A DNA stretch of 64,000 bases. It comes from Zootoca vivipara. Taxonomy: Eukaryota. The stretch's first letter is position 1; each line of letters opens with the position of its first letter. The translations under genes were made by a program, and so were the position numbers. The notes beneath the pieces were generated by a model. It was given only the letters and a program-made list of their open reading frames with translations, did not search any database and was not told where the DNA came from. Where the stretch lies: NCBI RefSeq assembly GCF_963506605.1, contig NC_083283.1:34844001-34908000 (forward strand), in the 5' to 3' direction. Below, one piece after another: positions 1,016 to 27,803 of the stretch.

Positions 1016-1294
1016 CCCTCCCCCCAGCAAATTTCAAGGACCTGGAGGGACAAAACAGGGAAAGTCCCATTGCACAAGCGGAAGATCATGCACAGGGCTT
1101 CTGCTGACAGGACTAGTTAGGTGAATTCCACCCATTGTGTATGACATTTTGTTGTCTATTGTATTGTAAAGTAAGGCTTTGATAGAGGGAGCTTGTCATG
1201 GACTCGTTGGACACAGAGGAATGGTGGGAGGAACCAGCTGGGATATACTGTAATTTTTAAATGGATATACTTTTAAAACACACGTTGACTAGCA

Positions 1295-1295
<1 letters not shown>

Positions 1296-1330
<35 letters not shown>
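1296..1330. repeat. (TGTC)n microsatellite
   Basis: Direct tandem tetranucleotide run. Confidence 0.95.
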
Positions 1331-2084
1331 ATGTGTGTGTTTAAAATAATAAATAAAAGAGAGAACTGCCATGTGGCCAAAATTATAATTCATTCCACCC
1401 CCACCAACCTCCCAAAAAACCACTCTGGCATATGGCAACCTTGCTCTTTTGTTTAGTGAACTTTTGCACTCGCCGCTTTCCCCCAGAGTTTCCCTGCATT
1501 TCCAACAGCAAACAAGCTGTGAGTTAGCATAAGAAAGCCTGATGGTCCATTCACTTGTTTCTGCTTGACGCCACCTGTGTATGCCTGAAAATGTTATCTT
1601 ATGTCCACTTTTCCTGAGGATGGTGAGGTCTTGCTCTTCCTAAAGCGATTATTTACTTCCACTGGAGCAATACCCTTGGAGAGGTTTGGTCCCCAAACTT
1701 GCCTGATTTTTTACACCAATTCATACACTTTGTCCCTGCATCTTTAGCATCTTAGTATTTATTAACAGCAGTAGCTGTGACTGAAAGTTACACTGCTGAG
1801 TTTCCCTCGTCTTCAAGATAAACGTAATGTGCTAAGTGGGAACACATTTGCAGTGCTTTGGCATCATTTATGCATGAGAGGATGCTTGATTCTAAGGCAT
1901 TTTTTAAAAAAATAAAAATAAAAATAAAACTCATTTTCTTTCCCTCCTTCTATGAAATCACCCCTTGGTGTCCTGAAGCTGTTTGTCAAATGTGTTATTG
2001 GGGTGGGGGGAAGAAGCACAGTGCTAGAGAAGAGCTCTAAAGGGAGGCAGACTTCTGCTGAGCCAGCCTTTTTGATGACTGCCC

Positions 2085-2400
2085 TCATTTCCTGACAGCT
2101 CCCTTTGGAGACCGAGAAGAAAACATGATGCCACCATGCGTACTGTTCACCGCAAACTTTCTGAAAATGTTTGGCAAAGGCTCTTCTCTGCTGATAAAAG
2201 ATTTATGACTAATGTCTCCAAAGGTTGATTCATATGTTGCTCCAGAAAAGAACGAAAATGCCACGCCACCCAACCATAAATGATGGGTTTTAATGCAAGG
2301 AAGACTGGTTGAAATTCAATGGCCTATGCAATGATGATCAACCCGAACCGTTCTGATGCTCAGTGATTATTTGCACCTGAAATGGTCATGTTGACTGGCA
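2085..2400. promoter_or_regulatory. Candidate conserved non-coding element/enhancer
   Basis: TE-free, with retained CpGs and TGACAG (MEIS-like), GATTTATGA and CCATAAAT (HOX/PBX-like) motifs. Conservation not tested. Confidence 0.3.
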
Positions 2401-2525
2401 AATGTTTAAGTGTATTCAATCAGTTCACCCAGATATTTTCCTCTAGATTCCCCCCCCCCAAAAAAAATATCTCTCAGAAAAGGCAAAAGAAACATTATTC
2501 AATTGTTTTCAATGTACTGGGCGCC

Positions 2526-2601
2526 TTCTTCTTCTTCTTTGGTGATCACTCGTAGTCGAGTAAGATTGTCTTCTATGAAAATGGTCTTAACAGTGAGTTC
2601 A
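2526..2601 (-). mobile_element. RTE LINE extreme 3' end with (GAA)n tail
   Basis: Matches 34985-35040 (atcactc.tag.cgagtaagattgtcttc.at...ttaaca.tgagt), preceded by (TTC)4. Confidence 0.7.
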
Positions 2602-3946
2602 TAACATATTGGCAACATGGTTTTTATATCATGAGTAATGATGATGTGGAGAGCTTCAAGGTGCAGGAAGAGAAGAAGTTGAGAATGGGAGCATGAAATC
2701 TTGGCACACGAAGCTAAGTATAGATGTTTGTTTGCTGCATTTTTATCTTCCTTTTCAGACAATTATTGCCTCCTAAAGTAGCTTACATCAATAAAGAAAG
2801 AGAATTAAAATTTGCAAGCCTTTAAGCTTGCAAACTACAGTGACAAGAAATGGGATAGTAGGGGAAAGATAGAAAAGGTAGATCAGTTCTTCAAGACCAA
2901 ATAAAGTGATGACCTATTAGAGGGCATTTATATCTACTTCAGGTTAGATGCCTCTTTTTCCTTTGGTCCCTTTGGTTGGAGCTAGAATATGCACGAAAGA
3001 GAAATTAGATTCAGCTTACTTCTAAAAGCAAATCTACCTAATTTGCACTTTCTCAAACATTGTGTGAACTGAAATACAGCCATCCTTCAAAATTCGCACT
3101 TCTCTGAGTTTTGCAGTTCTCTAACCAAGTGATGTGTAGAAAAAAATGCATGTACTGGGATGCATGAAAATGCACAGATTAGTGAAAATAGCATGCAAAA
3201 ATGAATTCTATTAGAGGAAATTGTCTTGCAAAAATGTGCATATTACATAAAACATGTAGATGCTGGGTGAAATTTTCATTAAAAATGCTTGCGAATTTTC
3301 ACAAGGACTTTAAAAAATTCATGCTGATGTACAAATGTGACAAAGTGAATTTATGGCTGGAAATATGAGAAACTGAAATTGACAGATTAGCCCCTCTCTA
3401 GGCTAGATGTTCCTTCTGGGAAACAGAAGGTGCAGTCTTCCAGAGGCCCAAAGTCCTCTGACCGATGGAAAAAGCCAGAGTGTGCTTCCCTTCTGCTCTC
3501 CAGTCCCAAGGCAACTTGAGGGGGTGTGAGGAAGTCTTTGTTGGGTTTTTTGTTTTTATTTTTTAACATGGTATGACTTAAGGGAAAGGATGTTTCCTGA
3601 GCTTTCTGGGAATAATTTGGTAGGCTTCTGCAGTATGTATTTATGTGCATACATATATAGCACACTAATATCAGAAAGAAAATACTTCCACTTTTGGAGC
3701 ACTACTGTACCTGCATTTGTCTGTTATAGTGGTGGAGGGGGAGGAATCCTCTGTTGGAAATTATGATCTCAGGTAGTCATGGTGAAAACCGAATCAGGAG
3801 GTGTAGGGTTTTACCCATCATTGGCTCTGGCCACTGCCAGCATGCAGTTCCTAACAGATTACCCTCAAGGGACTGCAGCCACCAATGGGAAAAAAAGGTT
3901 GCCCACCCTCACATAATGAGCTAGAAATAATCTGACATAGAATCTT

Positions 3947-18999: not shown

Positions 19000-19720
19000 T
19001 TAACGTCACTTGCTTTTTCATTAGCCAAGGAAAATGAGCCTCTGCAGCATTCAAGGCAACAGCCCAATAAAGATATATTACTGTCACTTTACTCTACTAG
19101 AGCAGATGGGTCATAATAGTATGTCAGATACCAATACATTTGTAGAGTCATTTTTTCTTATCAGCTAGTTAATGAAATGAATTTCTATCACAGCATCTTT
19201 AAAATGTAATACACTCACAACTGTCTTCAAAGACCTATTTTGAACTAAATATGTTATCTATCAAAATACTCATTAAAATTAGGTGCAGGCCTACAGGAAG
19301 AGATAGATTAAATCATTGAGGCATCTGGGCCTCTTATTCCTCTAATGTGACCTCATTATATCGTAATTCGTTACTGCAGAAATTTAATTTTCGAATGCCA
19401 TGGCGTTATGGAGTGATTTTCACAGTCCCGGGATTTTCATTCTACTAACCATAAACTTTTCTATCACTTTGTACAGGAGACCTGATTATTTAGAGACTTT
19501 ACGTGAACTTTAAATGAGCAACTCTTCTAAGCGAAAACTATGCCATGTATTACCAATTACACTGAGATAAATATCTCAGCCTTCATAATATCTAGCACAA
19601 TTATCAAGACATTGGAGGAAATTGCCTAGCCGCAACAAAGGCAAGATTGATTAAAATACTTGTGTGCCAAAGTGTTGGTCACGAAATGTGTTGAAAGAAC
19701 AGATTTTTAGCAAGAAGTGA
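19000..19720. promoter_or_regulatory. Candidate highly conserved non-coding element
   Basis: AT-rich, yet many CpGs are retained in 19360-19535 (tatcgtaattcgttac, ttcgaa, ggcgtt, cccggg, tacgtg). Contains CCAATAAA and CCATAAA HOX-type motifs and no TE signature. Confidence 0.45.
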
Positions 19721-19784
19721 CCCATAGATAGTTGCATAATGTTCTAACCTTCTAGCATATTGTCCCTTACTTGCTTTATCTTTA

Positions 19785-20029
19785 AACTACAAAGCCCTAC
19801 ATGGGCTCATTGGGGAATTATATCAATTAGCATATATACATTTTATGCCAACTGGTGCCTCTTTTCAACTCTTTTTTTTTGGGGGGGGTATAATTGGCCA
19901 TCCTAGATGATATAGGCCAATTATACCCCCCCCCAAAAAAAAGAGTTGAAAAGGGGCACCAGTTGGCATAAAATGTATATATGCTAATTGATATAATTCC
20001 CCAATGAGCCCATGTAGGGCTTTGTAGTT
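19785..20029. repeat. 115-bp near-perfect inverted repeat (fold-back) at the Bov-B 5' junction
   Basis: Arms 19785-19899 and 19915-20029 are reverse complements with ~2 mismatches; 15-bp spacer. Confidence 0.95.
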
Positions 20030-20033
20030 ATAA

Positions 20034-22178
20034 TTGGCCATCCTAGATGATATAGGGCTTCTTATAGCAAAATTCCAGCTTAAACTGAAGAAGGTAGGAA
20101 AAACCACTGGGCCAGTAAGATACAATCTGAATCAAATCCCTTATGAATACACAGTGGAAGTGAGGAACAGGTTTAAGGATTTAGATTTGGTGGACAGAGT
20201 GCCTGAAGAACTATGGATGGAGGCTCGTAACATTATACAGGAGGCAGCAACGAAAACCATCCCAAGGAAAAGGAAATGCAAGAAGGCAAAATGGCTGTCC
20301 AACGAGGCCTTACGAATAGCGGAGGAGAGGAGGCAAGCAAAATGCAAGGGAGATAGGGAAAGATACAGGAAACTGAATGCAGATTTCCAAAAAACAGCAA
20401 GGAGAGATAAGAGGGTCTTCTTAAATGAGCAATGCAAAGAAATAGAGGAAAACAATAGAATGGGGAAAACCAGAGATCTGTTCAAGAAAATTGGAGATAT
20501 GAAAGGAACATTTCGTACAAAGATTACCATAATCAAGGACAAAAGTGGTAAGGACCTAACAGAAGCAGAAGACATCAAGAAGAGGTGGCAAGAATACACA
20601 GAGGAATTATACCAGAAAGATATGGAGGTCTCGTACACCCCAGGTAGTGTGGTTGCTGACCTTGAGCCAGACATCTTGGAGAGTGAAGTCAAATGGGCCT
20701 TAGAAAGCACTGCTAATAACAAAGCCAGTGGAAGTGATGATATTCCAGCTGAACTGTTTAAAATTTTAAAAGATGATGCTGTTAAGGTGCTACACCCAAT
20801 ATGCCAGCAAGTTTGGAAAACTCAGCAATGGCCAGAGGATTGGAGAAGATCAGTCTACATCCCAGTTCCAAAGAAGGGCAGTGCCAAAGAATGCTCCAAC
20901 TACCGCACAATTGCGCTCATTTCACACGCTAGCAAGGTTATGCTTAAAATTCTACAAGGCAGGCTTAGGCAGTATGTGGACCGAGAACTCCCAGAAGTGC
21001 AAGCTGGATTTCGAAAGGGCAGAGGAACCAGAGACCAAATAGCAAACATGCGCTGGATTATGGAGAAAGCTAGAGAGTTCCAGAAAAACGTCTACTTCTG
21101 CTTCATTGACTATGCAAAAGCCTTTGACTGTGTTGACCACAGCAAACTATGGCAAGTTCTTAAAGAAATGGGAGTGCCTGATCACCTCATCTGTCTCCTG
21201 AGAAATCTCTATGTGGGACAAGAAGCTACAGTTAGAACTGGATATGGAACAACTGATTGGTTCAAAATTGGGAAAGGAGTACGACAAGGTTGTATATTGT
21301 CTCCCTGCTTATTTAACTTATATGCAGAATTCATCATGCGAAAGGCTGGACTAGATGAATCCCAAGCAGGAATTAAGATTGCCGGAAGAAATATCAACAA
21401 CCTCAGATATGCAGATGACACAACCTTGATGGCAGAAAGCGAGGAGGAATTAAAGAACCTTTTAATGAGGGTGAAAGAGGAGAGCGCAAAATATGGTCTG
21501 AAGCTCAACATCAAAAAAACCAAGATCATGGCCACTGGTCCCATCACCTCCTGGCAAATAGAAGGGGGAAAAATGGAGGCAGTGAGAGATTTTACTTTCT
21601 TGGGCTCCTTGATCACTGCAGATGGTGACAGCAGTCACGAAATTAAAAGACGCCTGCTTCTTGGGAGAAAAGCAATGACAAACCTAGACAGCATCTTAAA
21701 AAGCAGAGACATCACCTTGCCGACAAAGGTCTGTATAGTTAAAGCTATGGTTTTCCCAGTAGTGATGTATGGAAGTGAGAGCTGGACCATAAAGAAGGCT
21801 GATCGCCGAAGAATTGATGCTTTTGAATTATGGTGCTGGAGGAGACTCTTGAGAGTCCCATGGACTGCTAGAAGATCAAACCTATCAATTCTTAAGGAAA
21901 TCAGCCCTGAGTGCTCCCTGGAAGGACAGATCGTGAAGCTGAGGCTCCAATACTTTGGCCACCTTATGAGAAGAGAAGAATCCTTGGAAAAGACTCTGAT
22001 GTTGGGAAAGATTGAGGGCACTAGGAGAAGGGGACGACAGAGGACAAGATGGTTGGACAGTGTTCTCGAAGCTACGAACATGAGTTTGACCAAACTACGG
22101 GAGGCAGTGCAAGACAGGAGTGCCTGGCGTGCTATGGTCCATGGGGTCACGAAGAGTCGGACACGACTAAACGACTAA
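20034..22178 (+). CDS. Bov-B ORF remnant: complete reverse transcriptase domain, APE endonuclease missing
   Basis: Uninterrupted 714 codons with RT motifs NYRTIALIS, QAGFR, FIDYAKAFD, GVRQGCILSP, YADD and FLG. The TTG start lies in duplicated flank DNA; the first in-frame ATG is at 20217. Confidence 0.9.
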   Translation: MAILDDIGLLIAKFQLKLKKVGKTTGPVRYNLNQIPYEYTVEVRNRFKDLDLVDRVPEELWMEARNIIQEAATKTIPRKRKCKKAKWLSNEALRIAEERRQAKCKGDRERYRKLNADFQKTARRDKRVFLNEQCKEIEENNRMGKTRDLFKKIGDMKGTFRTKITIIKDKSGKDLTEAEDIKKRWQEYTEELYQKDMEVSYTPGSVVADLEPDILESEVKWALESTANNKASGSDDIPAELFKILKDDAVKVLHPICQQVWKTQQWPEDWRRSVYIPVPKKGSAKECSNYRTIALISHASKVMLKILQGRLRQYVDRELPEVQAGFRKGRGTRDQIANMRWIMEKAREFQKNVYFCFIDYAKAFDCVDHSKLWQVLKEMGVPDHLICLLRNLYVGQEATVRTGYGTTDWFKIGKGVRQGCILSPCLFNLYAEFIMRKAGLDESQAGIKIAGRNINNLRYADDTTLMAESEEELKNLLMRVKEESAKYGLKLNIKKTKIMATGPITSWQIEGGKMEAVRDFTFLGSLITADGDSSHEIKRRLLLGRKAMTNLDSILKSRDITLPTKVCIVKAMVFPVVMYGSESWTIKKADRRRIDAFELWCWRRLLRVPWTARRSNLSILKEISPECSLEGQIVKLRLQYFGHLMRREESLEKTLMLGKIEGTRRRGRQRTRWLDSVLEATNMSLTKLREAVQDRSAWRAMVHGVTKSRTRLND

Positions 22179-22186
22179 ACAACAAC
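20057..22186 (+). mobile_element. Bov-B LINE (RTE clade), 5'-truncated, young copy
   Basis: Recognisable Bov-B protein; 3' end GAGTCGGACACGACT followed by a (CAA)n tail; 12-bp TSD AGATGATATAGG at 22187-22198, matching 19905-19916 and 20045-20056. Confidence 0.97.
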
Positions 22187-22583
22187 AGATGATATAGGCA
22201 CACATGAAATTTTCAAAGCAGTTTAAATATTTCCTTTTGCAAGTGGATTCTTCCAGAAGTGGAAAGAGGAGACATTAAGAATTGGGGGCAGCTTGGTACA
22301 TACTATTTCAAAGGCAGGGATCTAAGGAGAGACTAGTTCTTGACTGGGTTTTTAAATAAAAAATATTCATTTTTAAAAATCCATTTATGTCCCACTTTTC
22401 TTCCATTATGGTACCCAAGGTAAAATGCCTGCATTTTCAGGGGATTTCCCATCCAGGCTCTGACCAAACACAGAACCTGCTTAGGTAAAGCAAAGTGGTA
22501 CCATTGCATGCCTTCAGACCATACCCTAAATAAGTAGCAGAAGTACAACACTAAATGCTAAATCTGAATATTCACTCCTGCAG

Positions 22584-23197
22584 ATGTATAACACCGGTCC
22601 TGAGAGATCTACATTGGCTCCCAGTACGTTTCCGAGCACAATTCAAAGTGTTGGTGCTGACCTTTAAAGCCCTAAACCAGGCATCCCCAAACTGCGGCCC
22701 TCCTGATATTTTGGCCTACAACTCCCATGATCCCAAGCTAACAGGACCAGTGGTCGGGGAAGATGGGAACTGTAGTCCAAAACATCTGGAGGGCCGAAGT
22801 TTGGGGATGCCTGCCCTAAACGGCCTCGGTCCTGTATGCCTGAAGGAGCGTCTCCACCCCCATCGTTCAGCCCGGACACTGAGGTCCAGCGCTGAGGGCC
22901 TTCTGGCGGTTCCCTCACTGCGAGAAGCAAAGCTACAGGGAACCAGGCAGAGGGCCTTCTCAGCAGTGGCACCCACCCTGTGGAACGCCCTCCCATCAGA
23001 GGTCAGAGAGATAAACAACTACGTACCTGACATTTAGGAAATACCTAAAGGCAGCCCTGTTTAGGGAAGTTTTTAATCTGTGATATTTTGATGTATTTTA
23101 ATGTGTGTTAGAAGCCGCCCAGAGTGGCACCGGGGGGGGGGGAACCCGGCCAGATGGGCAGGGTATAAATAATTTTTTTTATTGTTATTGTTATTAT
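22584..23197 (+). mobile_element. L2-clade LINE 3' fragment interrupted by a hAT MITE
   Basis: Encodes ITPVLRDLHWLPVRFRAQFKVLVLTFKALN..GLGP...RAFSAVAPTLWNALP, followed by a 3'UTR and an (ATT/GTT)n tail. Confidence 0.9.
22678..22813. mobile_element. 136-bp hAT MITE nested in L2
   Basis: Perfect 16-bp TIR CAGGCATCCCCAAACT; TSD CCCTAAAC at 22670-22677 and 22814-22821. Confidence 0.95.
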
Positions 23198-27626: not shown

Positions 27627-27803
27627 NNNNNNNNNNNNNNNNNNNNNNNNNNNNNNNNNNNNNNNNNNNNNNNNNNNNNNNNNNNNNNNNNNNNNNNNNN
27701 NNNNNNNNNNNNNNNNNNNNNNNNNNNNNNNNNNNNNNNNNNNNNNNNNNNNNNNNNNNNNNNNNNNNNNNNNNNNNNNNNNNNNNNNNNNNNNNNNNNN
27801 NNN
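27627..27803. other. Assembly gap (177 N)
   Basis: Run of N. Confidence 1.

Follow-up and report, generated by a model that had tools for sequence, protein, structure and literature searches.

How does a LINE insertion come to be preceded by an inverted copy of its own upstream flank and by an additional copy of its target? The question is raised by a locus of Zootoca vivipara that lies in a stretch of 64,000 nucleotides (NC_083283.1, positions 34,844,001 to 34,908,000 of the forward strand), which we call the window and whose own coordinates are used throughout. The completion of the 5' junction is still a poorly understood step of LINE insertion, and for RTE and Bov-B elements junction data were sparse in the literature searched.

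The junction and its element

An earlier note on this DNA had described a target present three times, an inverted copy of the upstream flank behind the first target copy, a direct re-copy of 28 bp and then a truncated LINE, and each part of this description was confirmed. By sequence comparison, the original flank (19785..19899, plus strand) is the left arm of a 115-bp inverted repeat and the fold-back (19915..20029, minus strand) is its inverted copy; the arm alignment leaves a loop of 15 nt between them (19900..19914, plus strand). The arms are identical at 113 of 115 positions. One mismatch is found at 19860/19954 and the other at the boundary of a T/G homopolymer at 19880/19934. The divergence is slightly above that expected from the age of the element (P of 2 or more 0.04-0.12). 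The palindrome is predicted to form a hairpin at -136 kcal/mol. Except for its own inverted copy and an 81-bp match of 75%, the upstream flank is single-copy in the 1.44-Gb genome.

The fold-back runs into the direct re-copy (20029..20056, plus strand), which matches 19889-19916 at 28 of 28 positions. The target AGATGATATAGG begins at 19905, 20045 and 22187, and when the window was scanned with up to one mismatch no further match was found, the mean expected by chance at that tolerance being 0.42. All three copies are 12 bp long and on the plus strand. Copy 1 (19905..19916) has the modal TSD length of the family, copy 2 (20045..20056) lies inside the re-copy and copy 3 (22187..22198) is the 3' TSD. 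Copies 1 and 3 have a 13th base in common (C19917 and C22199), and the microhomology at the start of the fold-back is therefore 2-3 nt (GG/CC or GGC/GCC). At the second junction, between the fold-back and the re-copy, the homology is 1 nt (T). The third, between the re-copy and the element, shares 0 nt with the upstream sequence of the family; we regard it as free of microhomology because 29 of 29 close copies extend upstream of 20057 with a different sequence.

The element itself (20057..22186, plus strand) is a 5'-truncated LINE corresponding to nt 1092-3221 of a full-length family copy. The family, with its length of 3221 nt, a single frame of 1010 aa and an (AAC)n tail, which the truncated element also carries, is not L1. 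The element keeps one open frame of 714 aa with a reverse transcriptase domain (Pfam RVT_1, E 8.9e-41; 20865..21605, plus strand; residues 270-516 of the translation from 20058). Because the nearest other family copy differs from it at 6 of 2130 bases, we consider it young, and it is the only copy of its family inside the window. It probably belongs to Bov-B, in the RTE clade; the name is that given in the earlier note, to which we add a (CAA)n 3' end, a Tn-TA signature with a TSD starting at A, and the reverse transcriptase domain in a long ORF. The same target signature, TSD start and (CAA)n 3' end have been described for Bov-B of reptiles (PMC13295347, sections 3.2 and 4.1). No Rfam family was found in the 5' 500 nt of the element.

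The nicks can be placed from the family signature. In the 112 young copies whose TSD is at least 9 bp long, T stands at -1 in 98 and A at +1 in 93, and the TSD is mostly 11-13 bp long with a mode of 12 bp. Since this agrees with Tn-TA, the first nick is expected at 19904/19905 and the second at 19916 or 19917, at the end of target copy 1. The sequence around the putative first-strand nick (19894..19905, plus strand) has TT about one turn upstream and T and A on the two sides of the nick, in agreement with the family and with PMC13295347 (section 3.2). The re-copy thus crosses the first nick and stops at the second. Elsewhere in the window, an inverted repeat at 22678-22813 (57-nt arms, 86% complementary, 22-nt spacer) resembles a small MITE, and a run of 177 N occupies 27627-27803.

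Other 5' junctions of the family

The 5' junctions were compared in 268 copies that have an intact 3' end, measure 100 bp or more and are flanked by 300 bp or more on each side; 404 loci had been reduced to 323, from which 16 were then dropped as too short and 39 for their short flanks. Because the copies were the best BLAST hits and the first matches on contig C1, this is not a random sample. Controls were 268 positions in the 3' flanks. Fold-backs of at least 30 nt whose end lies no more than 35 nt from the 5' end were found in 3/268 copies and 0/268 controls, which leaves 2/267 unselected copies when that of the window is excluded; at a threshold of 20 nt the counts were 2/230 and 1/231 (p=0.62). 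The number of fold-backs alone is not significant. What the scan of young junctions, a proposal of the earlier note, did bring out is a second locus with the same layout, and the weight of the class comes from this matching anatomy, not from the count.

The second locus (L149, also numbered L201) lies on another contig (C7, about 33.368 Mb). It has a 12-bp TSD, an inverted arm identical at 90/90 positions, a direct re-copy of 14 nt that ends at the TSD end, a join on 1 nt and a truncated element. In L105, an older copy, a fold-back of 34 nt abuts the element without a re-copy. Other candidates were rejected: L249 is a TA microsatellite, the repeats of L184, L292, L027 and L026 are distant from the junction, and the 14-nt arm of L116 is likely the end of a neighbouring MITE.

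Direct repeats of at least 12 nt ending no more than 10 nt from the element occurred in 14/267 copies (that of the window excluded; some of the 14 are without a called TSD or include element sequence), compared to 2/268 controls (p=0.002). Of the 10 young flank re-copies of at least 10 nt, 8 cross the first nick, since they begin upstream of the TSD, and 7 stop no more than 2 nt from the TSD end. The re-copy is preceded by element-like bases in L029, L296 and L033 (4-5 nt in two of them). Short inverted pieces taken from the sequence immediately inside the truncation point, resembling a snap-back of the cDNA, were present in 7 of 231 copies (L205, L278, L095, L087, L176, L066 and L255). Most junctions were plain, with 6 or more extra bases in 25 of the 122 young copies that have a TSD.

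Target re-copies and stutters at the 5' junction were noted in L019, L022, L029, L008, L033, L296, L260, L248 and L328, with several rounds of re-copying in L033, L248 and L260. The young copies L137 and L167/L205 adjoin or are nested in older Bov-B copies.

Origin of the flank copies

We prefer an explanation in which each of the two free 3' ends was first lengthened by copying local DNA and the ends were then joined, giving the inverted and the direct copy of the flank; our confidence in it is evenly balanced between belief and doubt. The endonuclease would nick the bottom strand at 19904/19905 and TPRT would make cDNA to nt 1092, after which the top strand would be nicked 12-13 nt downstream. 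The cDNA end might next transfer to the free end of the top strand, with no homology involved, and be extended leftwards by 28 nt, past the first nick. The resected top-strand end would fold back on 2-3 nt and copy about 113 nt of itself, and the two extended ends would join on 1 nt, followed by fill-in. The order of these steps, the strand and direction of synthesis and the enzymes are what we infer. The earlier note had the target 3' end snap back on 2 nt (GG/CC), which fits the first junction once widened to the 2-3 nt given above.

Because the re-copied stretch crosses the first nick, a polymerase extending the top strand after TPRT would be without a continuous bottom-strand template. A cDNA end copying along the top strand needs no bottom strand and is therefore more likely to have made the re-copy, and its jump onto the free top-strand end would let the re-copy start exactly at the nick without homology. 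It is because the bottom strand is cut, and because most re-copies in the family cross the first nick and end at or near the TSD end (8/10 and 7/10), that extension of both ends is preferred. The element-like bases ahead of the re-copy in L029, L296 and L033 weakly suggest that cDNA was already present. A point against this explanation is that none of the three fold-back arms stops more than about 5 nt from the first nick, a proximity that would not be expected from a pure snap-back but is expected from the one-path cDNA synthesis discussed below. The slightly high divergence of the arms is a further point against it.

Templated insertion by Pol-theta (TMEJ) uses about 2-6 nt of microhomology at each switch. 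The homologies at the successive switches were 2-3, 1 and 0 nt in the window and 1, 1 and 0 nt in L201, and the 0-1 nt at the second and third junctions would seem to suit a jump of the reverse transcriptase or end joining at least as well as Pol-theta.

The main rival, which we hold to be doubtful, is one continuous synthesis on the cDNA side in which the target end never folds back. The cDNA would jump to the top-strand end, copy 28 nt, switch to the upstream bottom strand at 19785, run to the end of that strand at the first nick and anneal there to the overhang on GG/CC. It ranks first among the alternatives because each arm stops close to the TSD start, at the point where the bottom-strand template would be exhausted: the offsets are -5 in the window, about +2 in L201 and about +2 to +3 in L105. 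The cDNA ends of R2 use cDNA, or in fewer cases nearby target DNA, for further priming (PMC11371274), and cDNA-on-cDNA snap-backs were present in 7/231 Bov-B copies. However, on this path the cDNA would have to enter duplex DNA 90-115 nt upstream with 1 nt of homology, the arm ends come from three events only, and a short loop is equally expected with an overhang of about one TSD length.

In the path of the earlier note, the top-strand end alone makes all three switches: after snapping back it moves to 19889, is extended as far as the nick and finally transfers to the cDNA. Its premise that the extra DNA was made at the insertion stands, but the single strand now appears unlikely, because standard TPRT has already cut the bottom strand inside the re-copied stretch, as it would in the 8 of 10 re-copies that cross this nick, and the template would be lacking. 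The path would be workable if the top strand were cut first with the bottom strand intact, or if the sister chromatid served as the template; a sister template, however, offers no reason for the stop at the nick. Gap filling would likewise stop at the nick, as 7 of 10 re-copies do to within 2 nt, and two rounds of a short top-strand snap-back could account for L019. On the other hand, the element-like bases of L029, L296 and L033 stand ahead of the re-copy.

Long palindromes are a recognised source of chimeric reads, and the palindrome could in principle come from a fold-back chimera or a mis-join in the assembly, which we regard as quite improbable. When contigs of 4 public runs (X1, X4, X15 and X19, of 24 listed) were compared with 19660-20095, no spanning read was observed in them, a point that would favour an artefact. 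Over the arms, the contigs of X1, X4 and X19 provide no usable cover, and none of the pieces compared spans the filled junction. X1, possibly the source sample, has zero cover over 19945-20049, where such holes prove nothing, and one 15x piece over 19900-19914 that is readable as the hairpin loop or as the empty allele. An artefact is, however, hard to reconcile with extra DNA that begins and stops at the TSD end and recreates the TSD, with the same layout on another contig, with direct re-copies concentrated at 5' junctions and not at controls, and with arms that are not identical. X15 and X4 have in common an alternative allele whose sequence departs from that of the window beyond 19735, at a point 50 bp ahead of the arm, and the first 20 letters of it have no match in the window.

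The comparison with an empty allele, also proposed earlier, was possible in X15, which is labelled as the same organism and is another sample. A single contig of depth 2.3 reads 19850-19917 and continues with 30 letters that match 22200-22229 at 28/30, so that it carries one target copy, no palindrome and no element. Four other letters and a 3-base gap in 71 indicate a diverged haplotype, and the support of this contig for the absence of the inverted duplication from the pre-insertion allele is weak but direct. Because the ends of the extra DNA coincide with the second-strand nick, the empty allele is without it and a second locus has the same layout, we believe that it was made at the insertion, and the structure is very probably a real by-product of that process. 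That the palindrome was older than the insertion, or arose later and independently of Bov-B, is scarcely credible, since it is absent from the X15 contig, its ends coincide with the nick and the arm of L201 is identical at 90/90, although the arm divergence of 2/115 slightly exceeds the 6/2130 between the element and its nearest copy.

Known relatives and inversions near nt 200

The closest known relative is a class of L1 junctions. Foldback inverted duplications of 52-220 bp, 5' of the target sites, were reported for 3 + 1 L1 insertions (0.3% and 0.1%; PMC10191854). They have in common with the Bov-B cases TPRT, a TSD, a tail and an inverted duplication of the upstream flank, here of 115, 90 and 34 nt, and they are rare there as they are here (2/267 unselected copies). 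The locus in the window shows a TSD of 12-13 bp, an (AAC)n tail and a 115-bp inverted upstream duplication. The differences are that ours is an RTE-clade element in an assembled genome, whereas theirs are somatic human L1 insertions, and that at two of our loci a direct re-copy up to the nick triplicates the target, of which there is no mention in the part of PMC10191854 covered here. The junction works like the L1 foldback class; it looks real and recurrent, a known class in another LINE clade with a repeated triple-target layout.

Among other L1 insertions, three have been described in which the reciprocal end carries an inversion and three in which locally templated sequence is present, and a fold-back of the resected reciprocal end was proposed (PMC11702581, Fig. 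S9A legend); both the resected end that folds back and the local templated sequence resemble our junctions. The case in that figure, however, is an inversion of about 900 bp with hairpin cleavage and 14 bp of homology, whereas at the Bov-B junction the flank is duplicated and fully kept, and the homology amounts to 1-3 nt. L1 ORF2p jumps between templates, and a model of it includes a jump of the cDNA onto target DNA (PMC10830420). Snap-back 5' junctions of R2 are seen in PRINT (PMC11371274), and duplications of the 28S target occur at 5' junctions of R1 and R2 (PMC2718515); the likeness to Bov-B lies in DNA-templated synthesis primed by the cDNA 3' end and in short target duplications, and the difference is that R1 and R2 are site-specific (PMC11371274, PMC2718515). 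Because the duplications of R1 come from 28S sequence on the RNA (PMC2718515), that explanation is inapplicable at unique Bov-B sites. Our literature search, whose scope did not extend to a key study (doi 10.1093/molbev/msn061), found no Bov-B or RTE fold-back junction and no fixed-site 5' inversion. PMC13295347 covers Bov-B TSDs and not rearrangements at the 5' junction, and its main text has zero occurrences of 'inversion', 'inverted', 'junction' and 'microhomology'; in the parts covered of PMC5389967 and PMC6007223 nothing relevant was found.

A second type of junction appeared in 10/231 3'-anchored copies: the insertion opens, on its upstream side, with an inverted 5'-end piece of the element that starts at nt 192-203. 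With nt 177-200 as an anchor, 2,472 exact matches were found, and the first 100 places listed gave 101 5'-end pieces. Among those listed, 25/101 stop at nt 200-209 and lie head-to-head with a 3' piece, 2/101 (one locus) stop there without a partner, 5/101 are head-to-head from other positions (233, 439, 592, 2031 and 2526) and 69/101 run through nt 200-209. The anchor motif omits pieces that end before nt 200, so that the lower edge of this peak is biased and the upper edge is unbiased. Among the 25 listed head-to-head cases, 14 were tested and 11 of these have a TSD common to both pieces; those with a TSD mostly show an overlap of 1-4 nt with the RNA sequence. The first in-frame ATGs, at nt 181 and 211, are close to this site, and the second priming lies 1.6-3 kb from the stop of the sense piece. 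These features suggest that the second strand may be primed at a fixed site on the Bov-B RNA. Head-to-head examples include L304, L305, L332, L336, L338, L364, L366, L374, L387, L389, L247 and L212.

The usual twin-priming geometry was also observed, in L401 (1-2031 with 1991-3115) and L403 (3-2526 with 2513-3221, TSD found). L046 and L111 have lost internal sequence, so that nt 1-266 or 1-195 is followed directly, and in the same orientation, by the 3' end, and the break in L111 is near the same nt 200 site.

In twin priming of L1, inverted pieces as a rule begin close to the point of inversion. The Bov-B inversions are alike in that the top-strand nick appears to prime an inverted piece within one TSD on 1-4 nt of complementarity, and differ in that the priming clusters at nt 200-209 of the element's own RNA, far from the stop of the sense piece; twin priming by L1 includes U5 snRNA primed at one loop (PMC4476161). 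We tentatively propose that the second-strand end of Bov-B is a routine primer for the reverse transcriptase, with fold-back (~1%), cDNA re-copy (~5%) and priming near nt 200 as its outcomes.

The exact 36-nt 3' end of the family occurs 14,841 times genome-wide, so that junction types of young copies can be counted at scale. A fold-back with a re-copy up to the nick, now seen twice, locates the second nick with an accuracy of one base and shows that sequence at the junction was templated locally. Each such event leaves a near-perfect palindrome of 90-115 bp with a spacer of 9-15 nt. Long palindromes of this kind are generally held to be unstable. At about 1%, a rough extrapolation from 2/267, the family may have left perhaps on the order of a hundred palindrome sites in this genome. 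The inversions near nt 200, with their sharp position on the RNA, are the stronger and more surprising lead.
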